Shown here: positions 15,583 to 64,000 of the stretch, piece by piece | Numbering within the stretch: the stretch's first letter is position 1 | Layout: each line of letters starts with the position of its first letter | From: an uncultured Gammaproteobacteria bacterium | Lineage (GTDB): Bacteria; Patescibacteriota; Microgenomatia; Levybacterales; UBA12049 | Direction: 5' to 3' | NCBI GenBank assembly: GCA_965230895.1 | Contig: OZ246394.1 | Coordinates: 1,377,887 to 1,441,886 of the forward strand | DNA length: 64,000 nucleotides | Notes under the pieces: generated by a model | The model's database searches: none | What the model was told of the DNA's origin: nothing | Seen by the model: the letters and a program-made list of their open reading frames with translations, nothing else | Made by a program: the position numbers and the translations under genes

Positions 15583-15658
15583 TGGGCCGTTAGCTCATTT
15601 GGTAGAGCACCTCATTTGCACTGAGGGGGTGGCGGGTTCAAATCCTGTACGGTCCACC
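15583..15658 (+). tRNA. tRNA-Ala (anticodon TGC), CCA encoded
   Basis: Cloverleaf folded by hand. Acceptor GGGCCGT/ACGGTCC with the G3:U70 Ala identity pair. Anticodon loop TTTGCAC. T-loop TTCAAAT. Confidence 0.85.
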
Positions 15659-15889
15659 AGTTTTGCAAGTGAAATCAAGCATTGAGGCAAACCCTCTAGT
15701 AAGAGAGGGTTTGCCTGAGTGACTTGATGATAGATACTCCTTCATCTTTAGATGAATGAGGCTCTTTAAAAAGTGAAGAGAATATCCTGAATTGTGTTTT
15801 GTCTGCACCCGCAGACGTCCATGGCGCAATCCAGGATAAAATAATCATGTCTTAAATCTTTACCTACATTACGGTAGGTAAAGTTGAAA

Positions 15890-19135
<3,246 letters not shown>

Positions 19136-19213
19136 ATTTTAATAGACATGTTTTTCTCTTCACTCTTTGAGGAGCTTCGAAAGGAGCAGCTCAGTACTTT
19201 AATAACAAAAATT

Positions 19214-19324
19214 TTCTGGTGATTGAAGCATTATGGCACCACCTCTTCCCATTCCGAACAGAGAAGTGAAACGTAATAGCGCTCACGATACTACCTTCGG
19301 TGGGAAAATAGGTCGTCGCCAGAA
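19214..19324 (+). rRNA. rrf: 5S rRNA
   Basis: CCCATTCCGAACAGAGAAGTGAAAC core. Terminal helix TTCTGGTGA/TCGCCAGAA pairs. Confidence 0.8.
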
Positions 19325-35373: not shown

Positions 35374-37719
35374 TTACTTCAGGAGGCTTCGTTCTTTAGT
35401 GTACATAATCCATAAGAGAAGATTAAAAAGAGAAATAAGGAAGAATGGTAATGTCATTGCTACGCCAAATGAGAATAAGAACATGAGCTCCAGGAGAAAC
35501 GAAACAAACAACGTAAACTCAAAAAGTTCTCCTGCAACATGTTTAAATCCGAGGATGTTTGGTATTTGCACATGATCTTTCGTGTATAACGTTACCATTG
35601 ATTCTTTCTTGGTATCAGTTGCTGAGGTTAACTCCTTTTTAATAAATCCTTCTTTTGTAACAATAAGCTTCAAATACGGCTTATCAAATACATTTCTAAT
35701 CGCAAATCTGCCTATCTTGTTTGTCATTCCATGAGCCAATATCTGGCCAGTTTTTATATCCGCAACTTCAATCCGGACCCCTGTAATCGGATTCTTCTTT
35801 TCATCAATGATAAAGCCATATATATACGCTTCATAATGTTTTCTCCCTGCTACAGCAAGCCCAAAGAAAAAGTATGGGAAGAAGTTCTTCCAAGGGATAT
35901 CGGTTCGTAATTGGAACAAAAGCATAGCCAATCCAGTAATTGAAAGCAGTGCAACTGCTCCAACGAAATAGAATAAGCGTACAGAACTCGACAGGTTTTT
36001 GAAGAGGCTCGTACTGGTGTTTAAAAACTCCTTTGACCAATCATAGAATGTATTTATGAGATAGGTGAGATCAAAAGGATTCTTCTTAAGGCGTACAGTC
36101 GGATATTCTTCACCTTGTGCGGATCCAAGGGTAAACTCTACTGATTTCTGACCATAACCCCAAGCACTCACATCTACTTTATACCGGCCAGGCAAAAGAA
36201 CAGGGGAGACTTCACCAATAGAATTGGAATAAAAGATCATATCTAATGGTTCAAATGCGTTACTTTTTGTATTAAATATTGAGAGCGCAGCTCGTGCATC
36301 AGCAAGTGGAGTATTAAGCTCAGACTCTAGGATTCTAATTGGCGGACCGCTTTTAAAATCAGATATCTTTCTACTCATTATGTTACCTTTTTGATCACTT
36401 TGATACATAAGAACGTTATAGGTTCCTATCTTTCCCGTGCGTAAATGAGCGACATAAGTAATTGAGTCTTTCGTCGCCATCTTTACTCTTCGGTCTATGC
36501 CATCTGGGCCAGAAACGACAATCTCAATAGAGGATGCTTGCTGTGGTTTTGTGAATGTATAAAACACTTGATATTCCGCTGTTGTAGGCAAGATAACAAA
36601 GTTATTGTTGGCCTCTTGATTCAGGATACGCGAGAGTAAAACTGTTTCGCCACTTTTTATAACAACAGCATCATTTTGAGCTTGAGGAACCGTCGATTTC
36701 GCTGCAGTTGTGAATGTAAATATTTCTGAACGGATGCTTTGTCCGCTACTATCAATCGCCACAACTTGGAAGTAATATCGAGTTGATGGGTTCAATTGAG
36801 ATATGGTTAATGTGTTTGATCGAGCAAACGCTGAAGAAATTGCTGTTCTATTCAAGCTTGATTCATCAGTTCCATAAAGGACAGTAACTTGAGCAGGACG
36901 GTTTGTATTGACAGTAACATCCGTAGAAGAATCAGTTATCCGATCAAATCGGACATCAAGTATGCTCACATTATTTGGTTTTTGAGCCGGAGTTGGTGTC
37001 GGTGCTGTAGTTGGTGCCGGTATTGCCGTAGGTTGTGGCCCTGGTGTTGAAGTAGGTCCAGGAGTCGGGGTTGGTGTCATTGTTGGTGTCGGAGTTAGCG
37101 ATGGTATTGGTGTGAGCGTTGGAGTTGGGGTCACGAGGCTCAAATCAAATTGGTATGTCTGAGTCTCTGTTTGGTCTGGAAAGGTTATAAAATCGTTGCT
37201 CAAGCGTGCTCTTGTCGTAAAAGAAACAGGATCAGGTTCTGTATAGTTTTCGTTTGTACGGAGCTGAAATGTCACAGTCTGGTTCGTTGTTCCGGCTGGA
37301 AGTGCTGGGATCGTCCAGGTGATCGTTCTGTTCAGTAAGTCGACAACTGGTACAACTCCGCCATATGCTGTGCTCGCTGAACCAATGACATAATCAAGAA
37401 CATGGCTTCCACCTGGTGCTTCATCATCACGAAAGTCTATCGTGATTGTTGTTTCAGTATCAGTGCCTGCTGAAGCTTGGGCTCCATAGGTAACTTCATA
37501 ATTAAGGACAGTTCTCTGTGGTACAGTTGTCTGTCCATCAGAGGCAAAGTTGAATTGAAAGTCACCTTGGCTCGGTGGAACAATAGCTGTAACAGAAAAG
37601 TCCCTTCGCTCTTGGACTTGCGCATATAATTGGGTTTGGACTGTTGGCAAAAGCAATAATGTAATGATGGCAGTCACGATAAAGATTATTTTGGATTTCA
37701 GGTTATATTTCATTCTCAT
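35374..37719 (-). CDS. large surface/membrane protein: signal peptide, PT-rich linker, FN3-like domain, two carboxypeptidase-regulatory-like domains, C-terminal TM helices
   Basis: Linker TPTPTLTPIPSLTPTPTMTPTPTPGP. FN3-like block (ISQLNPSTRYYFQVVAIDSSG). CarbopepD_reg-like PGRYKVDVSAWGYG. Hydrophobic helices near the C-terminus. Confidence 0.5.
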   Translation of the reverse strand: MRMKYNLKSKIIFIVTAIITLLLLPTVQTQLYAQVQERRDFSVTAIVPPSQGDFQFNFASDGQTTVPQRTVLNYEVTYGAQASAGTDTETTITIDFRDDEAPGGSHVLDYVIGSASTAYGGVVPVVDLLNRTITWTIPALPAGTTNQTVTFQLRTNENYTEPDPVSFTTRARLSNDFITFPDQTETQTYQFDLSLVTPTPTLTPIPSLTPTPTMTPTPTPGPTSTPGPQPTAIPAPTTAPTPTPAQKPNNVSILDVRFDRITDSSTDVTVNTNRPAQVTVLYGTDESSLNRTAISSAFARSNTLTISQLNPSTRYYFQVVAIDSSGQSIRSEIFTFTTAAKSTVPQAQNDAVVIKSGETVLLSRILNQEANNNFVILPTTAEYQVFYTFTKPQQASSIEIVVSGPDGIDRRVKMATKDSITYVAHLRTGKIGTYNVLMYQSDQKGNIMSRKISDFKSGPPIRILESELNTPLADARAALSIFNTKSNAFEPLDMIFYSNSIGEVSPVLLPGRYKVDVSAWGYGQKSVEFTLGSAQGEEYPTVRLKKNPFDLTYLINTFYDWSKEFLNTSTSLFKNLSSSVRLFYFVGAVALLSITGLAMLLFQLRTDIPWKNFFPYFFFGLAVAGRKHYEAYIYGFIIDEKKNPITGVRIEVADIKTGQILAHGMTNKIGRFAIRNVFDKPYLKLIVTKEGFIKKELTSATDTKKESMVTLYTKDHVQIPNILGFKHVAGELFEFTLFVSFLLELMFLFSFGVAMTLPFFLISLFNLLLWIMYTKERSLLK

Positions 37720-37760
37720 TCAAGCATACAAAATCGCAGCAGCCTGAGCAAGGCTAGAGA

Positions 37761-38171
37761 TTATTTAACGGTGATAATAAGCTTCTCATTCTGATTATTT
37801 CGGTCAGCAACTGCAAAAGTACCCTTCTTATTAAACTGCATCTGAACGGCTTCCATATGCCCGTAGCCGCGTGGAGTTGTTAATTCTGGAGTAGTTGCTA
37901 TCAATGACATTAATTCAGTCTCATTGGTGTTTACAATTTGGATATAGCGAGTGAATCCAATCGTCACCGCATGCTTGCTAAACTTTTTTCCATCAAAGGT
38001 AACTTTCGTTATCAATGGATCATTTTGTGTACCTCCAACTGTAGTTGGTTCTGGTATCACAATTTGTTTGACATCAGAAAATCCGTTTTGCAAAACTTCA
38101 GGAAAGAAAAATGCATGTGTTAAAAATCCCGCAGCAAAAAATAAAATGCTCAGGAATATATTTTTTTTCAT
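37761..38171 (-). CDS. small secreted protein (136 aa), hypothetical
   Basis: Signal peptide MKKNIFLSILFFAAGFLTHAF. Last gene but one of the long minus-strand operon. Confidence 0.35.
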   Translation of the reverse strand: MKKNIFLSILFFAAGFLTHAFFFPEVLQNGFSDVKQIVIPEPTTVGGTQNDPLITKVTFDGKKFSKHAVTIGFTRYIQIVNTNETELMSLIATTPELTTPRGYGHMEAVQMQFNKKGTFAVADRNNQNEKLIITVK

Positions 38172-38178: not shown

Positions 38179-39123
38179 TTATCTGAACAATGCCTTTAAA
38201 GCCTTGCCGAGACGCTTTCGCATGAGGTAAAGAAGGAATAATACTACAAGTGCACCTGCAGCGATTTTAACAGGGAAGACATAGAAGGTTGTGGTAGCTG
38301 AAAGGCTTTGATTTTGGGAACCATAGTACATAAGCGCAGTCGCTTTATAGCTTCCGATAAGGAATTTGTTGCTTAATTCAGAACGGAGAACTCGTTCTGC
38401 AGATGGGAAAACGTTTGTTCCAGGAACAACAATATCTGCAACTTTACGACCGAACATATCTGTCACATTGACGAGCCCAAAAGTCTTGACGTGGACATTG
38501 CCACTATTGGCAAATGTTAAGTTAAATGGAACTGGTCCATATTCAGAAAAAGTCGGTGCTTCAATTGATTTCAATTCGAGCTTCTCATCAACTGGACCGC
38601 TTACTTTAACAAGGAACAATGATGCGATTTCTTGAGAAAGTGATGCTGAATTTGGATCAGCATTTTCTGGTTTCACGCCAAAGACAAATGATCCAAATCT
38701 GCCTCCAGCAGCATCAGCTGGTGCTTTGATTATTGCTGTAACTTCCTGTTCAGCACCTGGTTGCAGTGTAAATGTCGAAGGTGAAACATTGGTCCAAGAA
38801 GCAACACTATATGGACTATCTGCTGTTAATTCAATTTGTCCTTCATCACCTTTGGCTGTAAAGTCTTCTATTCGAACTGTAACTGGTACGGAAGTATTGC
38901 TTTTATTTCTGAGGGTTGCTTTAACGGTTGTTGTCTTTCCCGGGTCGATAGATACTTCTTGTGATGGTGGAGAAACCTCAAGCCCTTGTCCTGGCACTTG
39001 TGCGGTTACATAATCGTGAATTGAATAGGCGAGCGTTGTCCCTCCTACAACTAACAAAACACTGAGCAATGCCCAGGATGCTTTATTCATTCCGTGGAGC
39101 TTGTTCAATAGTGTATGTTTCAT
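38179..39123 (-). CDS. cassette A1: secreted beta-rich protein with C-terminal TM anchor and basic tail (DUF916/DUF3324 CscA-like architecture)
   Basis: Signal peptide. C-terminal IAAGALVVLFLLYLM-RKRLGKALKALFR. Start ATG overlaps the stop of the upstream gene (TAATG). Confidence 0.5.
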   Translation of the reverse strand: MKHTLLNKLHGMNKASWALLSVLLVVGGTTLAYSIHDYVTAQVPGQGLEVSPPSQEVSIDPGKTTTVKATLRNKSNTSVPVTVRIEDFTAKGDEGQIELTADSPYSVASWTNVSPSTFTLQPGAEQEVTAIIKAPADAAGGRFGSFVFGVKPENADPNSASLSQEIASLFLVKVSGPVDEKLELKSIEAPTFSEYGPVPFNLTFANSGNVHVKTFGLVNVTDMFGRKVADIVVPGTNVFPSAERVLRSELSNKFLIGSYKATALMYYGSQNQSLSATTTFYVFPVKIAAGALVVLFLLYLMRKRLGKALKALFR

Positions 39124-40265
39124 TAGTATGTTGGTGTAGCAACGAGAATGACTGTTCCTGTATATGCTCCAGCAGGCTGAATACCATTAACTTCTGCTTC
39201 CCAACCTAATCGGACTGTTTCATTTGTAACTCCAGCAGCACTACAGATAACTTCTGCACCTGCTGTTGATGATCCTGCCCATTTCGCTCCACCACTTGTG
39301 AATCTTGCAGCAGTTCCAGTACAAAGCGTTGCATCTTCAGTTGAATATCCAAAGTATCCTGTGTTTGTATTTGCTGTTGTACCTGCTGGTGAACTCCATG
39401 TTGTTGGTGAAGCATTTGTGCCAGTCCAAGTATCAATATTATTTGTCGACCCTGAAATCAATGGAGGATTCCCCGATTGAGCATTTGCTGAATGAGATGC
39501 TGTCACTGTATAACCGTTCGCTGCGTTCGTACTGATTGTTACATCATGTGCTGCGATCTTTGGAGCACCATTTGCTAATGTTCCGAAAGGAATAGTTGTT
39601 GCAGTTGAAGTTACGTTAACGTTTCCTGATCCACCGTTGAAGTTTCCACCAGTTGAAACGCCAGCGACACTAAAGGAAAAGCTTGGATCAACCGTAGCTG
39701 AAACTGCAATTGAAGTTGTATCTAATACTGCAAATGCTGCAGTTGTTGGGCCGTCGATAACGGTTGAACCAGTGTCTGAATAGGTAGTTGTTCTTGCATA
39801 ATATGTTGTATTAGCACCTGATGGGTTCGTGACTCCTGTGAAGTTAACAAACATAGCCTGAGTTGATTGGGTTGATGGAGTAGTGACAACTACTCGAAAT
39901 GCATTTGCAGATGGAGCGGAGTTTGTTCTTCCGGTACCAGCGATGTTGTCAGTTTGAATTGTTGGGGTTCCTGAATTAAATCCAGCAGGAGCATTACATG
40001 TTCCAGAAGCGGTGGTACAAATCTGGATATCAATTTGTTTGATCGCAGTAGTAGCTGTCGTCGTCCAGTTAAACCCATAGGTAACATTGGATGCAGATGC
40101 TTGCGAATTGTTAATAGTTACTTTGTAGCTCGTTAATGTGCCGGCATTTGCTTTCGCTGCATACATATTTACTACAGGGGGGAGAAGCAGTAATAAGATT
40201 AAGAGCAAAGTCGATGTAATCTTTATCTGTGTTTTTGTAAGATTTTTCAATTTTTGAGCAGACAT
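39123..40265 (-). CDS. cassette B1: secreted Thr/Ser/Gly/Asn-rich protein, conserved C-terminal W-containing domain (WxL-like, inferred)
   Basis: Signal peptide. No anchor. C-terminal block PTTWSS...GYFGYSTEDATL...RFTSGGAKWAG...VILVATPTY shared with B2 and B3. Confidence 0.5.
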   Translation of the reverse strand: MSAQKLKNLTKTQIKITSTLLLILLLLLPPVVNMYAAKANAGTLTSYKVTINNSQASASNVTYGFNWTTTATTAIKQIDIQICTTASGTCNAPAGFNSGTPTIQTDNIAGTGRTNSAPSANAFRVVVTTPSTQSTQAMFVNFTGVTNPSGANTTYYARTTTYSDTGSTVIDGPTTAAFAVLDTTSIAVSATVDPSFSFSVAGVSTGGNFNGGSGNVNVTSTATTIPFGTLANGAPKIAAHDVTISTNAANGYTVTASHSANAQSGNPPLISGSTNNIDTWTGTNASPTTWSSPAGTTANTNTGYFGYSTEDATLCTGTAARFTSGGAKWAGSSTAGAEVICSAAGVTNETVRLGWEAEVNGIQPAGAYTGTVILVATPTY

Positions 40266-40319: not shown

Positions 40320-41285
40320 TCAAGGACGAATTAAGGCTTTTATAGCCTCAGAAAAGCGTTTTCGTTTAAGAATTATAAACAGTAAGAATATTAAGACTAA
40401 GACAAGCCCGAATGCATGAGCAAACGGAAATACAATAAAATATCTTTCATCTGTAATAGTTTGACCGTTGCCTGTCGAGACGGTTAGCGCTGCCCTATAA
40501 ATGTTTGGAGAAAGACCTTGAATTTTAGCTTCTTCAGTCCATCTTCGGACACCACCTGGGAATATGATTTTCTCTTCAAGTTCGATCTTTTGTTTGCTGG
40601 TTGCTGGAATAAGTGGTTCAACTGTCAGATCTGGTTTTGCTGAGAAGAAATTCAAGGCGATATTTTTAACGCGTAATAATAAAGGAACTGTACCTTCTTG
40701 ATTCCAGTAAGGTAAAGAAAAATCAAGAATCTCAGCTTTCTTTGCATTTGGATCTGGAACGCCGATGTTTGCGAGCATTAAAATTCCGACTTTGGCATTA
40801 ACTCTTGTGGCGTCAGTGGGAGCGTTCACTAAAACTGGTTCAAAAAAGAGTACACCATAATATCCACCAACAGGAATTGATTTTGGTGTCTGTATTGCCA
40901 TCTGTAATGTTTTCTTTTCCTTGGGACCGAGGATGAATTCGTTCTCGCTTAATGAAACCCATGAAAGAAGAGGATTCGTTTTTGATTCTTCAAAGATATA
41001 TCCACCTTCTTCGCCACTTGTTATGAAATCATTGAAAGATGCACGCAATGGCATAGGGGATGATGATAAGTTTTCGATTGTCACTTCCTGTTGTATTGTT
41101 TTGTCTGGGGATAAGGAAAGATTCATTATGACAGGTGACACTCGAAGTGTCTGCTCTTGTGCATATGCATTTTGAGCAGATAACAACGATACCACCATTA
41201 ATAATGGGGTCATTAAAGCTAGGTTTATACACTTTGATATATTAAATCTCATATTTAGCCATGAACTATTAATAACTAGGTACAA
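40320..41285 (-). CDS. cassette A2: paralogue of A1 (signal peptide, C-terminal TM anchor, basic tail)
   Basis: C-terminus LVLVLIFLLFIIL-KRKRFSEAIKALIRP. Overlaps B2 by 17 nt. Confidence 0.5.
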   Translation of the reverse strand: MYLVINSSWLNMRFNISKCINLALMTPLLMVVSLLSAQNAYAQEQTLRVSPVIMNLSLSPDKTIQQEVTIENLSSSPMPLRASFNDFITSGEEGGYIFEESKTNPLLSWVSLSENEFILGPKEKKTLQMAIQTPKSIPVGGYYGVLFFEPVLVNAPTDATRVNAKVGILMLANIGVPDPNAKKAEILDFSLPYWNQEGTVPLLLRVKNIALNFFSAKPDLTVEPLIPATSKQKIELEEKIIFPGGVRRWTEEAKIQGLSPNIYRAALTVSTGNGQTITDERYFIVFPFAHAFGLVLVLIFLLFIILKRKRFSEAIKALIRP

Positions 41286-42366
41286 CTATATATAATACGG
41301 TACTACTATACTTAGCTGCCTTTTGAGATGCAGCGGTTTGGACTCTATATGTGATCGTAAATTGCTCGTTAACGATAGCTGAAGTCACAGGTCCTGCATG
41401 ATCAGCTACTGGGTCTCCTGGAGTAGAGGTTGTGAATCCTGCATACTTAGGTCCACCGATGGTGAATCGGTCCGCCGTTCCTCCAGTTAAGCTACTATCA
41501 TTTGTAGTATAGCCGAATCCGTTGCCTGACCATGTCGTTGGTGCTGAATTTGGACTTGAATAATCAGCAATCGTGCCAAATCCTGTTGCCGTAAGTGGTC
41601 CAGTTGATCGTGCGTTAACCACATAACCATTATATGCATTGGTTGAAGTCGTAAGTGTCGTTGTTTTACTACCATCAGTATAGGAATTTCCGGAGTTCAG
41701 ATTGCTGAAAGTTACGTTATTTGAATCAACACTAAAGGTGAGGGAGGGCGTAGTCGTTGCCGCTTGCGCTGTTGGTCCGTATTCACTCTCAGTATAATCT
41801 CCCTGTCTAGCCTTTACTTTAATAGTATATGTTGTTCCTTGTAATAGACCCGTTACATATTCTCCGCTGGCTCCGCCCCAGTCCGTATAAGTTTGGAAAT
41901 CAGCACTTGTTAATGTCGTTCCAATAGTATTGTCACTTTTGATATAGCGGACGTCACTGACGAAATTATCAGAACTTATGGAAATAGCATATTCAGCATC
42001 GGCGGGATTATTGCTTGTATTGAGTATAAATTGTAAGCGGTCATAATTACTCGATGGATTTGTAAAAGTCGGTACTCCAGGGACGTGAGCTTTCATAATA
42101 TAAGTCAGTCCTGACCCCATTTGGAAATTTGTACTCGAAGGTCTCCCAAATTCTATTTGTCCAGCTACGCCATAGAGTCCAAAGTTACTTGAGGTACTAT
42201 TCGTTGTTCCACCGGAACCAAACGAATATTCCTGAATTCTGTAGTTGGTACTGGCTGGGTATGCAGCAAACGCAATAAGGGTGAGAGGTGAGAAATGAGA
42301 TGTTAGAAATATGATCAAAACCAGAATGGGCAGTTTATGTTTCATACTAATAGTATACCTACTCAC
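41269..42366 (-). CDS. cassette B2: paralogue of B1
   Basis: C-terminal block PTTWSGNGFGYTTNDSSLTGGTADRFTIGGPKYAG...STVLYIVVPSY aligns with B1. Confidence 0.5.
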   Translation of the reverse strand: MSRYTISMKHKLPILVLIIFLTSHFSPLTLIAFAAYPASTNYRIQEYSFGSGGTTNSTSSNFGLYGVAGQIEFGRPSSTNFQMGSGLTYIMKAHVPGVPTFTNPSSNYDRLQFILNTSNNPADAEYAISISSDNFVSDVRYIKSDNTIGTTLTSADFQTYTDWGGASGEYVTGLLQGTTYTIKVKARQGDYTESEYGPTAQAATTTPSLTFSVDSNNVTFSNLNSGNSYTDGSKTTTLTTSTNAYNGYVVNARSTGPLTATGFGTIADYSSPNSAPTTWSGNGFGYTTNDSSLTGGTADRFTIGGPKYAGFTTSTPGDPVADHAGPVTSAIVNEQFTITYRVQTAASQKAAKYSSTVLYIVVPSY

Positions 42367-42387: not shown

Positions 42388-42807
42388 CTAGATTGGCAAA
42401 TAGAAGACTTGTAACCCGAAGAGGGCATGGAGGTACTCAAACGTAGCGATCTGAGGAATACTTTTTTTGTTACAGACCACTGACATAATTGCTTTCGAAA
42501 ATGTCAGGTCTACTGAATCGCTCGATTCAACCGTTCTGATGGCTTGCTTCATCTCTGCGGATTCAGGAAAGATGATATTTATAGAACTTAAAGATATTGC
42601 TCTCAGATAATCTCGAGCTAGGGAAGGGCTGATCGTATTGTAGATAGTCGTGTATGTGTCATTCACCGTCATAATGCTTGCATATAGCTGATATTTCTCC
42701 TGGGCGAAGTATCTAAAGTACGCCGAAGCTTGCACATGTTTTGGATGTGCTCGATCTATAAAGGCGATGAAGCCATCTGGTGCTATGTATACTTTTTTAC
42801 TGACCAT
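42388..42807 (-). CDS. PIN-like protein (possible VapC-type toxin), low confidence
   Basis: N-terminal VYIAPDGFIAFIDRAHPKH resembles the PIN first strand/acidic residue. 139 aa. Immediately downstream of an HTH gene. Confidence 0.3.
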   Translation of the reverse strand: MVSKKVYIAPDGFIAFIDRAHPKHVQASAYFRYFAQEKYQLYASIMTVNDTYTTIYNTISPSLARDYLRAISLSSINIIFPESAEMKQAIRTVESSDSVDLTFSKAIMSVVCNKKSIPQIATFEYLHALFGLQVFYLPI

Positions 42808-42823
42808 AGATTAGGTTTGAAAC

Positions 42824-43180
42824 TTATTTTTCCTGTAATACCAGTCCAGCCCCTCTTCCTTGTAGTCTAAGCAGGGGATCGTCCTGTGTAAATTGTTTGT
42901 CCAATAAACGGTTACTTTTGAAGATTCTTGGTTGTTGTTCTGCGGTTGCTACTTCTTTGTGAAAATCCTGCAATGAGTCTTCTTCTACCCGAATGTTGCC
43001 ACCGACCTTTATCGCTTTTAGTCGTTTGTTCTTTATATACCGACGAACTGTCAGGGGGTGGACTCTAAGAATAAACGCTACTTGCTTAACGCTTAAAAGA
43101 TTATTCATATATCTATAGAGTAAAACGTATTGGCTGGAGAGTAAAGAGCCACTTTTATCTATCCATGAAAAAGTATGCAT
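42824..43180 (-). CDS. excisionase-family (HTH_17) DNA-binding protein
   Basis: LSVKQVAFILRVHPLTVRRYIKNKRLKAIKVGGNIRVEEDSLQDF matches the MerR-superfamily/excisionase HTH. First gene of the operon, divergent from the 2527-aa gene. Confidence 0.55.
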   Translation of the reverse strand: MHTFSWIDKSGSLLSSQYVLLYRYMNNLLSVKQVAFILRVHPLTVRRYIKNKRLKAIKVGGNIRVEEDSLQDFHKEVATAEQQPRIFKSNRLLDKQFTQDDPLLRLQGRGAGLVLQEK

Positions 43181-55825: not shown

Positions 55826-58800
55826 TTAATTAACAATCCACCAGTTAAATGTGATATCTTTTGTCGCATTATTTGATATTTGGATAGTGAAAGATCCTTT
55901 TTTGCCAGTTTGTGTATCTTGAGCTGTTTGCCGAGCTACATAAAGTGTCATTTTCTGTGTATCAGACGTCGCTGTCACGTAAATCAATGAATCCTTTGTC
56001 ACGTAAGGAGTGAAAATTGTTCGTTCTTTTTGTTTTGCTTTAATGATGCCTTTGCCAGCTGAATTATTGGAAGTTGTTTCAACGACTGAAGTATCTGCTT
56101 GTACTCCTCGTACAATATTAATATTTGCGAACTTACCTGCACCGGATGCTTCAACATCACCTTTTTGGCTGACTCGTACAACATCTTTTCCTTGATTGTT
56201 CTCAACTGTGAGGTCTGAACCCGGAACTGGCGCAATGATGTTTGCTGCCAATTTTCCTTTAACCGTAACATCCTTTGCAAAGAATGCATTACCATTTACT
56301 TCGAGATTACCTTGGGTATCGATAGCAACTTTACCATTGACGAACTCTACGCCATTAAATCCATCTGATTGGATTCGAAGTGGACCTGAGGCCGTATTAA
56401 TTGTAGCAGTGCCTTCATCATCAAGTCCGTTAATGTTCATGAGTCCTACTGTCACTTTTCCAGTAATTCCAACGTCAGAAAGGGTTGTTCTGCCAAGGAC
56501 AGAAAGTGTATTTGAAACTGTAGCATCCCGCGTGTCCAATTTCTCAAGTCCTAGTTCTGTTGGAGTTCGTAACGTATCCATGAATGTTTGTGGATCTTGA
56601 GAGAGCATTTCACTTACTTCTGAGCTAAATTCGGCAGCAGGGGAAGCTGCTGGACTTTGTGTTACTGAAGGACTTGCCACAGGTGTCGCTGATGGAGTGC
56701 TCATGATTCGAGTGATAGTAGGTGTCGGTATACTATTATAGATAGGCATAATCGTTGCTGCTGGAGATGCAACTCTTTGAGCCGCGACTGTCGCCGTTGC
56801 ACTTTGTGTTGCTTCACTAGCTTGAATAGCTGCAGTTGTCGCATTTGGTTGTGTGTATGCAATTTCTGCAGATGCAGTTGCTGCAACGGTTAATCCCTCC
56901 AATGCATCTGCTGATGGAAGATCTGTCTTTGCTTGTCCAGTGATTCTTTCAACAATTCCTGCGATGTAGTCATCTATGTGTTGTCCATTAATGAAAAGGT
57001 CGGTTGATGTAATGTTCAAACTTTGTGTAGTAATTTCGGTAACTTTTATCACTGACGCGATAAAGCCATTTTCAGCCTTTTCATTTTGTTGATCAGTTGC
57101 TGTAGCAATGCCTGCATTAACAGCCAAATTCAAATCGCCAGCATCTGTGACTTGTGATTGCGGAACCTGATAAGAGATATTTACGAATGACATTACCTTT
57201 CCAATAGCATTTGGATCAGTATTGTCATAACTTTCGAGTGCTCGAGCGATGATCTGTCCAGGTCGTGTCGCTTTCATCGCAACTCCTGGTATGTTTGAAG
57301 AGGTGAGGGGATCTCCCGCTTTAATCGCTCCATTACTTGTTGTCACTTTCACTGGCACTCTTCCTTGTAATGCCAATGGATACACATTTGGATGGTCAGC
57401 ATCTGGAGCTGCATCTGAATTGAGGGTAAAACCAGGCTTAGTTGATATGATACCTATCACTTGAGATTGGTATGATGTAGTTGATTTTACAACTGCTTGA
57501 TTGTTCTGGAGACTTTCAGGTATTACAACGTCACCTGGTTCAAGTGTTTGCGCTGAAACATAATTCTCTGCTAAGTCAGCTGCTTGTACTGTTGTGTTCG
57601 CTGCATAGATAGTTCCAGGTGTTGAACCAGCACAAGCGCCAGCAGTTGCTCGGACGCAAATAGAACCAGCAACATTAAATGCTCTGAGTGATTGATTCCA
57701 TGCAATTGATGGGTCTTGGACGAGTTGAGCATTTGCGCCAATAAATGGTAGTGCACCTGGTGTAAAACCAGTCAATGTAAAATTCTTTCCAGCAGCAACT
57801 GTCATTCCTTCATTTGCATTAATTAAACCATTGGCATTAACTGTACCGTTTAATTTACTTTCACCTTTTACTTCTATACTATTATTAATAGTCGTAACGC
57901 CTGTCTTTCCACCAAGTGAAAGGGTGGTGGCATTATCACCGATTGTTAAATTGGTTACATTTGTATTAGCAATACCGAATGTGTTACTGTTTGATGCTAT
58001 AGTATTTCCGTTTATAGCAATGTTTCCAGCGAACATTCCATCTCCTGCAGCGTTAACTCTGAATTTAGCAACATCATTGGCAAAACCGCTAATGATATCG
58101 TCACCTGAATTTTGTTTGACAGTAAGGGCTGAACGTCCATTTGTATTCCCGAGGATAGCAACGATGTCGGTAATTGTTACCGCGCCTGGTATGCCTGCAG
58201 CAGTGTTATTGCTTGTAGTATTTTGGATTGGAGCTTGCATGTCTATAATACCCGAACCATCAGTCGTTAATTGGATATTGCCATTTGATCCAGGGTTTGT
58301 AGTAAGAACCATTGTTTGGCCTGATAATGTAAATTGGCCTCCAGTAGCTTGGAATGTAGGACTAGCACTGCCTCCTATAGTTAAATCACCTGATGAGTCT
58401 AAAGCCAAAATTACGTTCTCAGTCGCCGCACTGTTTGTTATAGGCTTTAAGCCCTGTAGTGCTTGAGAATTGCTTGCTAAACCTGTTGTTGCGATCTGTC
58501 TTCGAGGCTGCAATTCTGCATCTCTTCCTACAGTCAAACCTACATAAAGGTTAGGGTTAGACGTAAGTAATTGCTGAGTTAGTGTTGCTTTCTTTCCAAG
58601 TGCTGTCGTGAAATAGCCATCCTGGTCTGGGGTTACACTTTGTGTTTCTTGCCAGAGCAATGCTGCTCCTGAAGCAGTTGGGCTATTATATAGCGCAAAC
58701 CGCAGCTTCGTTTCTGCGGTGATTGGTGTATTTGTTTTGTCCATTAGTCTTCCTTGGAAAGCGAGTGTTCGCGGAGGAGATATTGGTTGCGAGGCAAGAG

Positions 58801-60127
58801 CTGCAGTGTTTTTACTTGGTGGTTCAACAGCAGCCTGGTAACTTGCTACACCTGCAACAGCCATAGCAAATATAAGGATTGCGAAATGAATATGATGGGC
58901 GATAGGGTATGAATGATACTTCTTATACCATGCTGGACGAGTATGTCTCATATGGTGCCAGACTCTCTGATACCATGGTAGATTCTTAAGAGAAATACTC
59001 AATGGCGCATAAAACGATTTAGAAATATTCCTTACGAAATATGGTTTTGCTTTCGTCTTAATTCGGACAAGATCACCCACAACTGTAGCCGTCCTAGTGG
59101 TTATGCGAGTTATAGTACTAACCTTTTTAGGCAATATTACTTCTATTGGCTCAACCGGTAGTTTGTGACCGGCATTTTCTAAAATGGTGTTAACTGGAGT
59201 AAATACGCTCTTGCCTGAATTCTTCCATAATGAATATTGTACAGCCTCAGCACCTTTAGCTATAGGGTTAAATATTAGCGAATCAAATAGGTGACTGACA
59301 AACTTAGTCGTTTTTTGTCCGAGTCGGATTGGAGCAAAGCTGGAATATTTTGTCTCTTTCGGTAATTCTTCCTCAGGTGTGATTTCCTTCAAAGCGGTTA
59401 GGGGCAAGGGTGCTGCTTCCGGTATAATCTTTTGGACTATGGTCTCTTCAGGTTCAACTTTCTCAACCTTTTCTTCAACTATTACTGGTTCTCTTTTAAC
59501 TAGTCCTTGATCACTCAACCAACGGAGATATCTTCGAAGTGAGGAGAGCTTTCTATTTATAGATGTAGGTGAAAACTTCGAATCACTCATTAACCTTTCT
59601 TTATAATGCTCAACCGTTGCAGTATCTATCATAATGAATCGGTTATCCTTTGATACGATATCATCGACATTTACCTTCTCGAACCACAAAAGAAATTGGT
59701 GGATATCATGCAAATAATTCTTGATCGTTAATTTGCTGGCGCCAGTTGCAACGAGAGAATTTTTATATGGTTTTATTTGCCAAGGGTCTTCAATTACTTT
59801 CGGAGAATCGGTAATTATTGCGTCAAATGGATTTGCCTCAATCGCCCCAGAATCGCGTAGGAAGCGACAAAACTTTCTTAATGATGAAATGTACCTCTTT
59901 GCAGAACGAGTAGCGACGACAGAACCTTGACTGTTTTCATTAAGACTCTGTTGATAGTTCTTTATAAGCTCGGGAGATAGATTTGAAGCTGAAAATGTAC
60001 TACCCTCAGTCTTTTCATACCATTGAATGAACTTCCTTACGTCAGAAAGGTAGTTTTTCACAGTTACCTTGCTAGGTTTATTCCTGTCTGTGAAAAGATG
60101 TAATCTAAAATCATTTACTATATCCAT
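55826..60127 (-). CDS. giant membrane-spanning protein (1433 aa): two N-terminal integrase core-binding (SAM-like) domains, TM helix, large extracellular beta-rich region
   Basis: Core-binding-domain-like segments TVKNYLSDVRKFIQW...YISSLRKFCRFLRDSGAIEANPFDAI and TIKNYLHDIHQFLLWF...KLSSLRRYLRWLSDQGLV. TM helix HFAILIFAMAVAGVASY. FQGRL N-domain and C-terminal domain shared with the 2527-aa protein. Confidence 0.65.
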   Translation of the reverse strand: MDIVNDFRLHLFTDRNKPSKVTVKNYLSDVRKFIQWYEKTEGSTFSASNLSPELIKNYQQSLNENSQGSVVATRSAKRYISSLRKFCRFLRDSGAIEANPFDAIITDSPKVIEDPWQIKPYKNSLVATGASKLTIKNYLHDIHQFLLWFEKVNVDDIVSKDNRFIMIDTATVEHYKERLMSDSKFSPTSINRKLSSLRRYLRWLSDQGLVKREPVIVEEKVEKVEPEETIVQKIIPEAAPLPLTALKEITPEEELPKETKYSSFAPIRLGQKTTKFVSHLFDSLIFNPIAKGAEAVQYSLWKNSGKSVFTPVNTILENAGHKLPVEPIEVILPKKVSTITRITTRTATVVGDLVRIKTKAKPYFVRNISKSFYAPLSISLKNLPWYQRVWHHMRHTRPAWYKKYHSYPIAHHIHFAILIFAMAVAGVASYQAAVEPPSKNTAALASQPISPPRTLAFQGRLMDKTNTPITAETKLRFALYNSPTASGAALLWQETQSVTPDQDGYFTTALGKKATLTQQLLTSNPNLYVGLTVGRDAELQPRRQIATTGLASNSQALQGLKPITNSAATENVILALDSSGDLTIGGSASPTFQATGGQFTLSGQTMVLTTNPGSNGNIQLTTDGSGIIDMQAPIQNTTSNNTAAGIPGAVTITDIVAILGNTNGRSALTVKQNSGDDIISGFANDVAKFRVNAAGDGMFAGNIAINGNTIASNSNTFGIANTNVTNLTIGDNATTLSLGGKTGVTTINNSIEVKGESKLNGTVNANGLINANEGMTVAAGKNFTLTGFTPGALPFIGANAQLVQDPSIAWNQSLRAFNVAGSICVRATAGACAGSTPGTIYAANTTVQAADLAENYVSAQTLEPGDVVIPESLQNNQAVVKSTTSYQSQVIGIISTKPGFTLNSDAAPDADHPNVYPLALQGRVPVKVTTSNGAIKAGDPLTSSNIPGVAMKATRPGQIIARALESYDNTDPNAIGKVMSFVNISYQVPQSQVTDAGDLNLAVNAGIATATDQQNEKAENGFIASVIKVTEITTQSLNITSTDLFINGQHIDDYIAGIVERITGQAKTDLPSADALEGLTVAATASAEIAYTQPNATTAAIQASEATQSATATVAAQRVASPAATIMPIYNSIPTPTITRIMSTPSATPVASPSVTQSPAASPAAEFSSEVSEMLSQDPQTFMDTLRTPTELGLEKLDTRDATVSNTLSVLGRTTLSDVGITGKVTVGLMNINGLDDEGTATINTASGPLRIQSDGFNGVEFVNGKVAIDTQGNLEVNGNAFFAKDVTVKGKLAANIIAPVPGSDLTVENNQGKDVVRVSQKGDVEASGAGKFANINIVRGVQADTSVVETTSNNSAGKGIIKAKQKERTIFTPYVTKDSLIYVTATSDTQKMTLYVARQTAQDTQTGKKGSFTIQISNNATKDITFNWWIVN

Positions 60128-61754
60128 GGCAGTTTATTGTGAAAACTCGTTACTTAATAAAATACGAAAACTCTTGTTTAGCTACGAAATTATACTGATT
60201 ATACCGATTATCAACGTTAAAAATGAGCTCTTAAACTAGAATATATAAAATGTTATTTGGATGTCAATAAGCTGGGGGCATATTGATATGTTTGGATACT
60301 CTTTGTTATTGTCGTGTTTTCATGATTTTAGCCTTAATGGTTACACATAGCTGTTTTAAAGGTTAAATTGCCTTAAAAATGCGGAAATTACTGCTATATT
60401 TCGTATTTTTCGTGAAGATATTTTTATTCTAGCCACGATTTGTGCCTATTGAGTTTGAGCACTCTTTACACAGTAATGCTCTGCAAAATGACTAAAAATG
60501 CTTGTAATATGGGATGTTTTTATTAACGAATATTTTAAGAGAAATATGATTCAATAGTAATTGAACTGTGTTTTTGATCTTCCGCAAAATGCTTGAAAGT
60601 GGTTATTTGGCATTCAGAATAGACTAGTGATAGCTTTCCTGAATGATTGTTTGGTTTGAATTGACAATCCAAATGTTTAATTACCGATATTTTACGATAG
60701 CATCATATGATTAATTGTACATACTGGCATCGCTGTTCGTTAATAGTGTGAGTTTGATGAAATCCATTTATAGCATGATCGGTAAAATCATACTATAAAT
60801 GGATCATTTATTTGTTGGGGTTTCTATATAAAGTTCTTACGATACCTTTCTTAGTGGAAGTAAAATAGCCTCAATATACCTAAACAGCGCTTATCATGGT
60901 TGTGAAATAGTGTTTTCACTAGGGTTAGCTCAATGGTGAAGTGAAGGATGTTAAGTCATATTTATAGTATAACATCTCAAAAATAAATAGTAGTAATAAA
61001 CGATAGCTAAACTGGTTATTTTAATAGTCCTATATTTATTAATTTGTTTCCACTCATTAGTGAATCCTATTTGCAACTTGTCAATAATTTTAAATTTAGC
61101 CTTGTAATAGAAGACAAGCTGAGAAGCCCTAGAAGGCCCATGAAATATTTCTGCTGTATAATTTATCATCCTATTAACGTATATGTAGGCTAAAGTTTTT
61201 GATAGATGTTTTGCAGTAAAAAGTTGAAGTATTGAGGCTAAAAATAAATTAATGTATATAGTAACTCGTATCTAATATGCATTAGAGTCTTAGAGTGATA
61301 GCACTATAAATACGGTAGTAGCTTTGATATCTATAAGATATGGAATGATCCAATAGTATGTGGCTACTATTCTCTAAGCATATCTAGAGGGATTTCTGCT
61401 AAAAGTTGATTTCTATAGTGTTATGACTATAATCGAGTAATAAGTGATGTTCTTGTGTCTATTTGGGGAAAGGGCTAGGTATTACAAATATACCTAAAAG
61501 GAGCTCTAGAGTTAATATTTAATAGAGTAGTGTAATATGGATATTACTATTGACAAAGTCTATTTAGCAGACTTCGTTTGACTATGATAGTTTGCGAACA
61601 GGTTGATTTGACAACCTAAACAAATAAATGCTGACATGTGTTTTTTAGAAGGCATTCAGATGCGTTTTAAGGCACGCAAATTCCTTTACCAGACTCATTG
61701 ATCATTATACAAAGACCTTAAAAAGCTCTAAATGATACATTTGAGTACTAGAAT

Positions 61755-62777
61755 TTACCTTAACTTCTTCTTTACTCTTTTATAAATGAGTATTGCCAAA
61801 GCTATTATGAATATAAGTCCGAGTAGCAAGTGGGTTGGAAAAACCATAAATCGGATAGTTTGTGAGTTTATTGGCCCATCCTCAGACATAGCTAAATTAA
61901 TTTGGGCACTATAAATCCCGAAAAGGAAATTCTCTTTCCATTCAACCTTAGGTTCGGTTGTCTCCTGGATTGTCCTTGCAATCTGAGTTTCATCAAATAG
62001 TGAACGGGAGGTGCCAGCTAATATCGGAGTTTCGGGAATATCTACTCGACCGACTGCTTGGCCAAAGATATTCTTTATAAGAATATTACCTTTAGGTGCG
62101 ATATAGTGTATGCCTGTGTTTTTAACCTTTATTGCAAATGGTACCGGGCCAGATTGTTTGTACCAAGGAGTAGAGAAATCTTCAATATAGCCTTGGGCTG
62201 TTTCCTGGTTTCCAACTGCAAGTAGAACATTTGCCCCGAGACCTCCTTGAATTGTTGTAATAGTGTGTTGATCTTTTTTGTCACTTATTGTGCTGTTTTG
62301 ATCTGTTTGCTGTGTGACATCATGGAAGAAAATGAGCGAAAAGTAATAGTCTCTAGAAGCTTGATTTTGAGGTAATTGCACTCGAAGCTGTAATTGTTTT
62401 TGCTGCTTAGGCCCTAAATCAAGGCTATTTACGCGTGCATTGTCTGTATCTACAACATATACATAGTTGAAGATGTCATTCGCTGAACCTGGGTTGTCTA
62501 TATATGACACTTTCCCTTCTTGAGATAAAGTAGGATCAAAAAGTTTATAAGCAAGTTTCAATCTGATGGATTGGTCGCTTTGATTCTCAATAATAAAAGG
62601 TGCTCGAAGATCAGAAGGTGTTTGAGCCTTAATCTTGATTGTTGAAGGAGTTATTTTAAGAGCAAGTCCCTCAGCATATGCTTTTGTAGGTAAAAATGAG
62701 CTCGCAAGTATTGAAAATGTCGCGACTCCAAGAAATAATCTCGACTTGAATGATGTAGTACGTTGTGCTTTGATCAT
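61755..62777 (-). CDS. cassette A3: third paralogue (signal peptide, C-terminal TM anchor, tail YKRVKKKLR)
   Basis: Same architecture as A1 and A2. Start abuts the B3 stop (TAA-T-ATG). Confidence 0.5.
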   Translation of the reverse strand: MIKAQRTTSFKSRLFLGVATFSILASSFLPTKAYAEGLALKITPSTIKIKAQTPSDLRAPFIIENQSDQSIRLKLAYKLFDPTLSQEGKVSYIDNPGSANDIFNYVYVVDTDNARVNSLDLGPKQQKQLQLRVQLPQNQASRDYYFSLIFFHDVTQQTDQNSTISDKKDQHTITTIQGGLGANVLLAVGNQETAQGYIEDFSTPWYKQSGPVPFAIKVKNTGIHYIAPKGNILIKNIFGQAVGRVDIPETPILAGTSRSLFDETQIARTIQETTEPKVEWKENFLFGIYSAQINLAMSEDGPINSQTIRFMVFPTHLLLGLIFIIALAILIYKRVKKKLR

Positions 62778-62778
62778 A

Positions 62779-63540
62779 TTAAAAGTTGGGAATAGCTATA
62801 AAGGTCACCGTATTACTATAGCCGCTAGGAGGTTGCGTGCCTGAAATATTTACTTTATAGGTGATCTTGGTGTTGGTTGTGGGTTTAGCTTGTTGGTTCA
62901 GTATAATTGACTGTAAAGTTTCCTTAGCGGAGATGTCTGCAAACTGCTTGAACGTATTGGTATTAGAAAAATCATTGCCGCAAACTTCTGTAGCCTCGCT
63001 ATCGCATCGAAATCCGAAGCCATATGTTAGAGAATTCTCCCAGTTTGCTGGAATTGTTTGGGTACACGTCCCGTTGTCGCAGGTAGTATCAGGCAGAAAA
63101 GTATTTTCTGTATTTAAAAATGGGTGATTCTCATAAGCAAAAATCTGACCTCCATAAAGAGGAGAAGTAAAGGCTAAATCAGAAGTTCTTATAACCGGAT
63201 TTGTGGCCGTAAGTGCCCCAAAGTCAATAGTATTTTGTGAGATAGAGAAGCTAAAATAGTCATTTGTGCCTGCAATAGTATATGTTGGTTTCGTATCTAG
63301 CACGACTTTTGGAATAGTAGGCACAAATGGTAATGGTTGGTTTGTTGGTTTTACAATTGGAGGTGGTTTTGTTACTTCCGGAGCTCCAGGGTCAATCTCT
63401 TCAAATTCAATTGAATAATCTCCACTTGAAGATACAGCTGCAAATGTTTGAGAAGAAAGTTGAAAAAAGAGAAGAGAACATACACCCGCGACAATAAATG
63501 GTTTAATCAAGTTCTTTGGTTGAAGATTGTGGGTTAACAT
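62779..63540 (-). CDS. cassette B3: third secreted B-type protein
   Basis: C-terminus ANWENSLTYGFGFRCDSEA...ITYKVNISGTQPPSGYSNTVTFIAIPNF aligns with the B1 and B2 C-terminal blocks. Confidence 0.5.
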   Translation of the reverse strand: MLTHNLQPKNLIKPFIVAGVCSLLFFQLSSQTFAAVSSSGDYSIEFEEIDPGAPEVTKPPPIVKPTNQPLPFVPTIPKVVLDTKPTYTIAGTNDYFSFSISQNTIDFGALTATNPVIRTSDLAFTSPLYGGQIFAYENHPFLNTENTFLPDTTCDNGTCTQTIPANWENSLTYGFGFRCDSEATEVCGNDFSNTNTFKQFADISAKETLQSIILNQQAKPTTNTKITYKVNISGTQPPSGYSNTVTFIAIPNF

Positions 63541-63690: not shown

Positions 63691-64000
63691 ATGAGTAAAA
63701 ATGAAGCTAAATCAGATGAATTAAAATATGCTCCTAAGGCGATTGAGTTGAAATGGCAGTCTAAATGGCAACAGGAGAAAGTCTATCAGCCACAACTTGA
63801 TTCTGCTAAGCTTCAAGATAGGCACAAATCAGCCTCAAAAGATAGAAATCGATTTGAAGGTGATTTAGCCTCAAAACGTCCGGTCAAAGGAACTCCTTTT
63901 TACGATCTAACCATGTTTCCATATCCTTCAGCCGAGGGCTTACATGTTGGTTTTAGTTTTACATCCGCTGGGATTGACTCATATGCACGATTTAAGAGGA
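63691..64000 (+). CDS. leuS: leucyl-tRNA synthetase, N-terminal fragment (runs off window)
   Basis: IELKWQSKWQ...FYDLTMFPYPSAEGLHVG matches the LeuRS N-terminus (HIGH-region variant). Open to the window edge. Confidence 0.6.
   Translation, partial: MSKNEAKSDELKYAPKAIELKWQSKWQQEKVYQPQLDSAKLQDRHKSASKDRNRFEGDLASKRPVKGTPFYDLTMFPYPSAEGLHVGFSFTSAGIDSYARFKR

Follow-up and report, generated by a model that had tools for sequence, protein, structure and literature searches.

A leuS-linked pilin and chaperone-like gene pair of Levybacteria as a probable divergent unit of the Pam pilus

Introduction

What is encoded by the two adjacent genes, B3 and A3, that lie between leuS and a giant gene in the genome of an ultrasmall bacterium of the Levybacterales, and how are they related to two similar gene pairs in the same region? 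The window analysed here is the whole stretch of 64,000 nucleotides (nt) of contig OZ246394.1 (assembly GCA_965230895.1, positions 1,377,887 to 1,441,886 of the forward strand), deposited under the name of an uncultured Gammaproteobacteria bacterium and classified by GTDB within the Levybacterales (Patescibacteriota, Microgenomatia). It contains three such pairs (B1/A1, B2/A2 and B3/A3), each of which is a cassette of a Pam-type pilin and a membrane-anchored chaperone-like partner, the third being the PamT-like version. This type of surface-filament module is already known, and B3/A3 is a divergent, currently unannotated member. Most probably, the pair is a two-gene operon of the Pam pilus of the Candidate Phyla Radiation (CPR), assembled by usher-independent donor-strand exchange, with B3 as a tip-type pilin and A3 as its chaperone.

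Knowledge of the Pam pilus dates only from 2026 and comes from a single cultured parasite of the Saccharimonadia, Ca. Mycosynbacter amalyticus (bioRxiv 10.64898/2026.03.03.709456). The filament pilins PamA and PamB, which carry paired cysteines, were identified by cryo-electron microscopy (cryo-EM), and the operon additionally encodes PamE, the single-domain PamT, which is the predicted tip, PamC and PamD, which are PapD/FimC-like chaperones but, unlike the classical ones, possess a transmembrane helix at the C-terminus, and the RbmA-like anchor PamR, reported to have an extra N-terminal strand; there is no usher. Homologues were found in the CPR alone, chiefly in Saccharimonadia and Microgenomatia, with a tail-fibre-like gene nearby, and the preprint makes no mention of WxL or DUF916 (bioRxiv 10.64898/2026.03.03.709456). 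The latter domain characterizes the WxLIP proteins (DUF916, DUF3324 and a transmembrane helix) that are encoded in the WxL clusters of Bacillota (Hassan et al. 2023, PMC10599100; PDB 9i1y, 9i25).

Results

The B3 and A3 genes

Both genes are located on the minus strand. The features of the pair are given below with their coordinates in the window, the lengths of the products in amino acids (aa) and the basis of each assignment (ORF, open reading frame; AF2, AlphaFold2 model; pLDDT, its predicted local distance difference test score; Ig, immunoglobulin).

62779..63540, minus: B3 gene, encoding a 253-aa secreted single-domain Pam-type (PamT-like) pilin (ORF and NCBIfam)
63439..63540, minus: B3 signal peptide, aa 1-34, probably cleaved after TFA (AF2 helix, conservation of A34)
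63391..63435, minus: strand-like motif at the N-terminus of mature B3, aa 36-50, VSSSGDYSIEFEEID (conservation among 98 homologues)
63259..63390, minus: variable Pro-rich tether of B3, aa 51-94 (low conservation, indels, pLDDT)
62782..63258, minus: C-terminal pilin domain of B3, aa 95-253, an incomplete Ig-like beta-sandwich (AF2, Foldseek, hhalign)
62778..62778, minus: single-nucleotide spacer from the B3 stop codon (TAA) to the ATG of A3 (direct reading of the sequence)
61755..62777, minus: A3 gene, encoding a 340-aa membrane-anchored chaperone-like protein with two Ig domains, PamC/D-like and DUF916/WxLIP-related (ORF, AF2, Foldseek, PF06030)
62313..62666, minus: A3 domain 1, aa ~38-155, a DUF916-like beta-sandwich (AF2, Pfam, hhalign)
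61842..62246, minus: A3 domain 2, aa ~178-312, a second beta-sandwich (AF2, alignment with a Deinococcus homologue)
61758..61835, minus: C-terminal transmembrane helix and Lys/Arg cytoplasmic tail of A3, aa 315-340 (AF2)

The junction reads ...CCC AAC TTT TAA T ATG ATC AAA..., with a single nucleotide between the stop codon and the ATG, and no Shine-Dalgarno-like sequence is seen on direct reading before the A3 start. Because the junction combines a 1-nt gap with the lack of a ribosome-binding site, translation of the two genes may well be coupled, which suggests matched amounts of the two proteins. The initial annotation had reported the two ORFs and their 1-nt junction, a secreted B3 with a C-terminal block marked by a tryptophan motif, and an A3 with a signal peptide, a C-terminal transmembrane segment and a Lys/Arg tail; all these features recur in the analyses that follow.

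B3 as a divergent relative of the Pam pilins

The identification of B3 as a pilin is based on matches to the Pam family models together with the fold of chaperone-usher pilins. The B3 family was represented by an alignment and profile of 98 homologues, and the A family by a sample of 57 members. Residues 101-253 of B3 match the NCBIfam model CPR_Pam_pilin_C (NF058581) over positions 2-148 of 148 (E 1.7e-5), and 93 of the 98 family members match it at E<0.01 (best 4.8e-11). The PamT model (NF058579) is matched by 26 members (best 2.9e-15), one of which, P0090, aligns with it end to end (positions 6-241 of 241, E 1.5e-11), and by B3 itself at E 0.02. The AF2 model built from the 98-sequence alignment (mean pLDDT 82.9) contains one confident beta domain, residues 95-253 (pLDDT >90), preceded by a low-confidence region (residues 1-90). 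The Foldseek matches of this C-terminal domain in the PDB include FimG, CsuE, FimA, CfaB, PapA, PapE, CsuA/B and TasA, with modest E-values (from 4e-3) and high probabilities. Sequence searches of the PDB that started from either protein or either family profile returned nothing relevant. Judged by the profile matches, B3 is a divergent relative of the Pam-pilus pilins, for which homology is supported and membership at the curated level is not reached.

Within the C-terminal domain, four cysteines (154, 159, 179 and 187) and W167 are invariant across the 98 homologues, the C-terminal A-x-P-N-F is invariant or nearly so, and the conservation extends to the free C-terminus, which presumably matters. 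An extracytoplasmic, disulfide-stabilised domain would fit this pattern.

The N-terminus of B3 is a hydrophobic signal-like segment (AF2 helix 15-25) that ends in ...TFA|AV, with A34 at the predicted cleavage site conserved in 82% of the family; this site was predicted by reading the sequence. The segment that follows, aa 36-50, has the family consensus T-x-S-N-x-N-Y-S-I-D..I-D, with ~3 bits per column at S38, N39, N41, Y42, I44, I49 and D50, and is unstructured in the AF2 monomer model. Its alternating hydrophobic pattern is donor-strand-like, and the motif is a candidate donor strand or chaperone handle. The tether that links it to the pilin domain (aa 51-94) is Pro-rich, poorly conserved and rich in indels, with a pLDDT of ~60-67. 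The order of signal peptide, N-terminal motif, tether and pilin domain, without an N-terminal beta-sandwich, is probably that of PamT.

A3, the membrane-anchored partner

A3 starts with a signal-like segment (helix 9-27, AYA|E), continues with two beta-sandwich domains (strands 40-152 and 179-312; pLDDT of the AF2 model 85.5) and ends with a helix (315-339, pLDDT >90) and the tail YKRVKKKLR, for which the family consensus is IYxRVKKK. As modelled, A3 has the layout of PamC and PamD, with a signal peptide, two PapD/FimC-like beta-sandwiches and a C-terminal transmembrane helix. The fold comparison yields three groups of matches. By E-value, the top Foldseek match is RbmA (1.5e-10), but with a root mean square deviation (rmsd) of ~16 Å, alongside the Enterococcus faecium WxLIP structures 9i1y and 9i25 (2.5e-10), of which 9i25 is a WxLIP-WxL complex, and the chaperones of chaperone-usher systems, CsuC, Caf1M, CfaA, SafB, CupB2 and DraB (1e-9 to 1e-7). 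The best TM-scores (0.45-0.54 on target) belong to the chaperone-usher chaperones.

Sequence models add a single recurrent signal, the Pfam family WxLIP_PGBD (DUF916, PF06030), which weakly matches aa 62-140 of A3 (E 0.011). A1 and A2 also match it weakly, as do 28 of the 57 A-family members (best 8e-6, below the gathering score). There is no Pfam match to DUF3324 (PF11797) in the A proteins, none to the PapD domains (PF00345/PF02753) at E<=1 in A1, A2 or A3, and nothing in NCBIfam at E<=1 for A3.

Paralogy with the other two cassettes

The other two cassettes are adjacent to each other, on the same strand.

41269..42366, minus: B1, a long Pam-type pilin of 365 aa
40320..41285, minus: A1, a paralogous membrane-anchored chaperone-like protein
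39123..40265, minus: B2, a long Pam-type pilin of 380 aa
38179..39123, minus: A2, a paralogous membrane-anchored chaperone-like protein

B3 and A3 align to these paralogues above background in BLASTP, hhalign and hidden Markov model (HMM) comparisons. In BLASTP, A3 finds A1 at E 1e-18 (24% identity over 255 aa) and A2 at E 6e-13, and B3 weakly finds B1 at E 5e-5 (the last 45 aa) and B2 at E 3e-4. In hhalign, the C-terminal ~155 aa of both long pilins clearly align with the B3-family profile up to the final residue, at 94.7% and E 5.6e-8 for B1 and at 84% and E 7e-6 for B2. Of all ORFs of 50 aa or more in the window, B1 (1.4e-8) and B2 (2.2e-6) alone score with the family HMM, the next value being 0.38.

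The similarity is partial. The three cassettes had been taken to share the same architecture, which holds for A3 and for the C-terminal part of B3, but not for the N-terminal domain of ~150-170 aa that is present in B1 and B2 and missing from B3. B1, in which a PamT-like N-terminal motif and an Fn3-like N-terminal domain precede the C-terminal pilin domain, matches both NF058581 and the N-terminus of NF058579 (E 2.7e-10 for PamT). B3 represents a different subunit class (single-domain, PamT-like) and is no copy of B1 or B2. In B1, aa 38-90 hold three tandem S-x-N-Y/F-x-hydrophobic motifs right behind the signal peptide, which resemble the B3-family motif; it is with these repeats that the N-terminus of the PamT model aligns. 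A1 is listed with a TTG start that lies within B1, an overlap of 17 nt; an in-frame ATG 11 codons downstream (41252), which gives a protein that begins with MRFNISK 16 nt past the B1 stop, is the likelier start.

The initial annotation had proposed a phylogeny of the paralogues, and for the A proteins it resolves old lineages. In a neighbour-joining tree, all chaperones encoded next to short pilins form a group with A3, the 'second' chaperones encoded next to long pilins form a group with A2, and A1 stands apart. Given this grouping and the low mutual identity of A1, A2 and A3 (19-23%), the split of the A paralogues is older than the sampled Levybacteria, and each chaperone lineage tracks one pilin class. 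Recent duplication of the cassettes is ruled out by the same identity values and tree. On these grounds, and given the conserved position of the pair beside leuS, the idea that a cassette was duplicated and dispersed around the surface-protein locus is not supported in that form and is valid solely in the sense of an ancient paralogy. The third cassette is indeed set apart from the other two, by about 19.4 kb and not the 18 kb originally given.

Conservation and genomic neighbourhood

For B3, 694 homologues were detected, and for A3, 55 by a word-indexed search; an exhaustive search with the A-family profile (including A1 and A2) yielded 6,777 representative clusters. The reading of the two genes as chance ORFs is ruled out by the 694 B3 homologues and the 6,777 A-family clusters. 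Homologues whose source carries a meaningful taxon name come mostly from Levybacteria (Levyibacteriota) or the 'Patescibacteria group'; many titles of metagenome-assembled genomes point outside the CPR (such as 'uncultured Gammaproteobacteria bacterium'), and these are presumably mislabels.

The pair is flanked solely by leuS and giant gene 2.

63691..64000, plus: start of leuS, divergent from B3
60128..61754, no strand: AT-rich ORF-free spacer between A3 and giant gene 2 (sequence)
55826..60127, minus: giant gene 2, 1433 aa

Scanning the species representatives of GTDB yielded 156 confirmed loci, of which 80 were analysed by ORF calling and HMMs. In 70 of the 75 loci long enough to show it, the B3-type gene has an A-type gene as its immediate downstream neighbour on the same strand, mostly at a spacing of -4 to +20 nt, and the remaining five seem to reflect problems of start calling. 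With same-strand adjacency in at least 70 of 75 species-level loci, the suggestion that the cassette is a functional unit is borne out. In 50 of 58 loci, the gene upstream of the B3-type gene, and divergent from it, is leuS. Within 6 kb downstream, on the same strand, 29 of 50 loci have a homologue of giant gene 2, and 21 have none. Co-occurrence with giant fibre genes applies to one lineage only; in another clade, a long-pilin/chaperone cassette comes directly after the pair instead.

In four homologue loci (38-46% identity), divergent leuS, B3, A3 and a gap of ~0.75-1.6 kb are followed by a giant protein of ~1,430-1,500 aa with N-terminal Phage_int_SAM domains, which is split into two ORFs in one of them; a 582-aa gene stands ahead of the giant gene in one of the four loci, and a ~730-aa tetratricopeptide-repeat (TPR) membrane protein comes after it in three. 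In 16 loci, a second A-type chaperone gene is located ~1.5 kb downstream of the pair, and in all five of those inspected closely, a long pilin of 465-500 aa, ending in ...YVATPTF, is encoded between the two chaperone genes. This arrangement, in a second Levybacteria clade, is a compact apparent operon of short pilin, chaperone, long pilin and chaperone. In five loci (L029, L035, L040, L054 and L082, ~9300-14400 in each), leuS on the minus strand is followed by a gene for a ~210-aa membrane protein and then by the four-gene pilus operon, with a convergent gene ending in ..HHAWFVGY shortly downstream and no giant gene within reach. The B3/A3 pair is an ancient, positionally stable orthologous unit, and its link to the giant gene is lineage-specific.

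The spacer and giant gene 2

The spacer between A3 and giant gene 2 is 1.6 kb long, contains no ORFs and has a GC content of 31%, compared with 41%. Comparable spacers, of 0.44-4.4 kb with a median of 1.16 kb, are present in 29 further loci of Levybacteria; such length is unusual for streamlined genomes. No Rfam family was found in the spacer, and no pseudogene remnants of pilin, chaperone or other downstream genes. Conservation is limited to the last, promoter-proximal ~100-160 nt, and it is in this sole conserved part that a near-consensus sigma-70-like promoter, TTGACA-16-TATATT (11 of 12 positions; 60267..60240, minus strand), lies, ~110 nt upstream of giant gene 2. Because of this promoter, giant gene 2 is probably a separate transcription unit. 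Its product combines N-terminal Phage_int_SAM domains with a membrane segment and an extracellular fibre-like region. In a complete Levybacteria chromosome (OY970292.1; L021, 12039-20224), the giant gene after the pair is split into five consecutive ORFs, which could result from frameshifts, assembly errors or pseudogenisation.

Relatives of the A family outside the CPR

On plasmids, tblastn with A2 found a 'DUF916 domain-containing protein' of Arthrobacter at E 4e-5 with 76% coverage, hypothetical proteins of Deinococcus at E 1e-4 and, at E 0.7, a 'DUF916 and DUF3324 domain-containing protein' of Bacillus, the gene of which comes directly after three WxL-domain genes. The A profile aligns with both domains of the Deinococcus protein (hhalign 96%, E 4.9e-9) and with domain 1 alone of the Bacillus WxLIP (HMMER 20 bits; hhalign 48%, E 1.8e-4). 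On the strength of these alignments, the A family appears to be related to DUF916/WxLIP proteins beyond the CPR, a link that is new in this analysis.

The B partners do not show the corresponding link. WxL (PF13731) has no Pfam match at E<=1 in the 98 B3-family members, B1 or B2, and homology of the B C-terminal domain to WxL was rejected, as far as sequence goes, after comparison with four Bacillus WxL domains (HMMER 1.8 bits, hhalign probability 0.15%); the best local alignment of the B3 profile with Bacillus WxL is the shared C-terminal strand Y-x-x-T-x-T-aromatic. On the plasmids of Deinococcus sp. NW-56 (L091, 3935-9508) and Arthrobacter caoxuetaonis (L089, 4224-5801), the A-type relatives adjoin small secreted hypothetical proteins with pilin-like C-termini, e.g. 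..ADNYTATIVHSVI and ..GGGYLFDMTFTALALP. An NCBIfam scan of the neighbours of these Deinococcus and Arthrobacter genes gave no Pam-pilin matches; the plasmid genes may form pilin/chaperone-like pairs of Deinococcota and Actinomycetota that have gone unrecognised.

Discussion

Proposed mechanism and alternative explanations

Homology, architecture, fold classes, topology signals and the conserved pairing come from the present analysis, whereas the binding of A3 to B3, strand exchange, the tip position and co-translation are extrapolated from the Pam preprint and from established chaperone-usher biology. In the resulting scheme, B3 and A3 would be produced together owing to the 1-nt stop-start junction and exported by Sec, with A3 staying tethered to the cytoplasmic membrane by its C-terminal helix and the Lys/Arg tail inside the cell. 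The two Ig-like domains of A3 would form a PapD/WxLIP-like chaperone, a beta-strand of which would be inserted into the open groove of B3 as a cap (donor-strand complementation). The A3 strand would then be replaced by a linker strand from one of the long pilins, B1 with its own chaperone A1 or B2 with its own chaperone A2 (donor-strand exchange), so that B3 would occupy the distal tip of a filament whose growth from the membrane involves no usher.

Several observations weigh against this scheme. Every NCBIfam and Pfam match of B3 and A3 is below the curated cut-offs, with 24.9 bits for B3 against a cut-off of 55 for NF058581 and with family PamT scores of 14-44 bits against a 240-bit equivalog cut-off. 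No Pam structure appears among the PDB matches by sequence or fold, and A3 is likened to PamC and PamD by their described architecture, not by their sequences. A donor-strand-like motif would be superfluous in a pure tip subunit, which weakens the tip assignment. Finally, the best Foldseek E-value of A3 is to RbmA, the fold assigned to PamR, and this makes an anchor role possible. In such a role, A3 would be a PamR-type terminator that donates a strand to the last pilin and fixes the filament to the membrane, and PamR is indeed described as RbmA-like with a C-terminal transmembrane helix. The superposition on RbmA, however, is poor (TM-score 0.23-0.37, rmsd ~16 Å, vs 0.45-0.54 and ~9 Å for chaperone-usher chaperones), mature A1, A2 and A3 start 3-6 residues before the first strand, with no extra PamR-like N-terminal strand, and there is one A gene per pilin gene, so that this assignment is considered highly improbable.

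The main rival shares the principle of strand complementation and differs in the outcome alone: in a static display of the WxL/WxLIP type, A3 would be a permanent anchor that holds B3 by beta-strand complementation, and no filament would form. The DUF916 matches of 28 of the 57 A-family members, the high rank of WxLIP from E. faecium, with the complex 9i25, in the Foldseek comparison of A3, and the alignment, at 20 bits and hhalign E 1.8e-4, of a bona fide Bacillus WxLIP with domain 1 of the A profile all agree with this, as does the composition of WxL clusters, which also hold short and long partners next to a transmembrane-anchored two-Ig protein; 1:1 gene pairing would suit a stoichiometric complex. 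The B side argues otherwise, given that the B3 family matches the Pam pilin C-domain model, whose namesakes were cryo-EM filaments, that none of its 98 members matches WxL (PF13731), that the B3 profile is not significantly similar to Bacillus WxL domains, and that related genomes encode long and short pilins in one operon. Static display is accordingly rated as unlikely. Still less is to be said for the pair serving giant fibre protein 2, with B3 coupling it, as an adaptor, cap or anchor, to the cell surface or the pilus. Such a role would account for the homologue of giant gene 2 that 29 of 50 loci have on the same strand, 0.44-4.4 kb downstream, and that all four loci at 38-46% identity have too, and a tail-fibre-like gene is at the centre of pam neighbourhoods (bioRxiv 10.64898/2026.03.03.709456). 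Yet 21 of the 50 loci have no giant gene in reach, with a pilin cassette in its place in one clade, a long AT-rich spacer with its own near-consensus promoter intervenes, and the B3 and A profiles match nothing in the giant protein; this role is regarded as improbable.

Beyond the probable Pam operon, a broader scenario can be put forward tentatively. The Pam chaperones, the WxLIP proteins of Bacillota and the uncharacterised plasmid relatives from Deinococcus and Arthrobacter could belong to one ancient family of strand-complementing proteins with a membrane anchor and two Ig domains, an usher-less counterpart to the chaperone-usher pathway that reaches beyond the CPR, in which the PamT-like pilin keeps its own chaperone lineage and the B3 motif on its Pro-rich tether is a possible second donor or handle of a kind not described so far.

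Other genes in the window

Downstream of A2 (35374-38171, minus), two genes encode a 136-aa secreted or membrane protein without a family match and a 781-aa protein in which a signal peptide, Fn3-like and CarboxypepD_reg domains and a linker rich in Pro and Thr are combined with several membrane helices at the C-terminal end. These may be further components of the pilus or its anchor, possibly a substitute for PamR. Between the pilin operon and giant gene 1 (42388-43180, minus) are two small genes, for products of 118 and 139 aa, the former resembling, as judged by eye, an excisionase/MerR-type helix-turn-helix protein; it is possible that they are local regulators of the divergent surface-protein genes. 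Farther away, at 15584-19324, tRNA-Ala, 23S and 5S rRNA are encoded without an adjacent 16S rRNA gene; the 23S match spans 3,251 nt, compared with 2,925 nt in the model, i.e. with ~330 nt of insertions.

Implications

In public records, proteins of the B3/A3 type appear only as 'hypothetical protein', below the NCBI family cut-offs. The finding that a PamT-like subunit and its own chaperone lineage form a fixed, leuS-linked two-gene unit in dozens of Levybacteria species takes the Pam system firmly into the Microgenomatia. With one pilin and one chaperone, B3/A3 is a minimal pair suited to the study of usher-free donor-strand exchange in vitro. The link to DUF916/WxLIP outside the CPR suggests where the chaperone-like machinery originated; strand complementation may also, as this link hints, be at work in the WxL clusters of Gram-positive bacteria, which are poorly understood.

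Comparison with known systems

Among the characterized systems, the TasA fibres of Bacillus resemble the proposed filament in being a strand-donation polymer of a Sec-exported beta-sandwich subunit in a monoderm, with a weak fold match (8aur, E 0.0098); they differ in having no dedicated two-Ig-domain membrane chaperone and no sequence similarity to B3. Chaperone-usher pili (Pap/Fim, Csu, Caf1, CFA/I) share with the pair an incomplete Ig-like pilin (B3), a two-domain boomerang chaperone (A3) and, presumably, donor-strand complementation and exchange. Here, however, there is no outer membrane and no usher (none of the cassette genes and two downstream genes scanned has an usher-like Pfam match), the chaperone is membrane-anchored and not soluble, PapD_N/PapD_C and fimbrial Pfam matches are absent, and identity is 5-16%.

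WxL/WxLIP clusters are similar in more respects on the A side. A3 has the same layout, from a signal peptide through a pair of Ig-like domains to a transmembrane helix at the C-terminus, and its domain 1 is weakly but repeatedly DUF916-like in sequence and alike in fold; in addition, these clusters join short and long secreted partners with one transmembrane-anchored protein, and partner binding has been proposed to involve an inserted beta-strand or hairpin. The B partners, by contrast, are not detectably WxL domains, the A proteins have no match to DUF3324 (PF11797), and WxL proteins are described as peptidoglycan-bound surface proteins, unlike filaments.

The Pam pilus differs from the present locus in that the similarity of B3 and A3 is below the NCBIfam curated cut-offs, in gene organisation, with three B/A pairs and a chaperone gene per pilin here as opposed to two chaperones and four pilins in a single operon in the preprint, and in that the PamT-like pair stands next to leuS as an operon of its own, at a distance of ~19 kb. 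No clear equivalent of PamR was identified here, and a scan of the ten larger ORFs of the window did not reveal the ATP synthase genes with which pam operons are reported to co-localise, the sole ATP-synt_ab match being Rho. The likenesses extend from the proteins to the genomic setting: B3 has a Sec signal and four invariant cysteines, comparable to the paired cysteines of PamA and PamB, and is a single-domain, PamT-like member; the two-Ig partners have a transmembrane helix at the C-terminus and a fold like that of the chaperones of chaperone-usher systems; and both systems combine the lack of an usher and CPR-restricted pilins with a host from the class Microgenomatia and a tail-fibre-like giant gene nearby.

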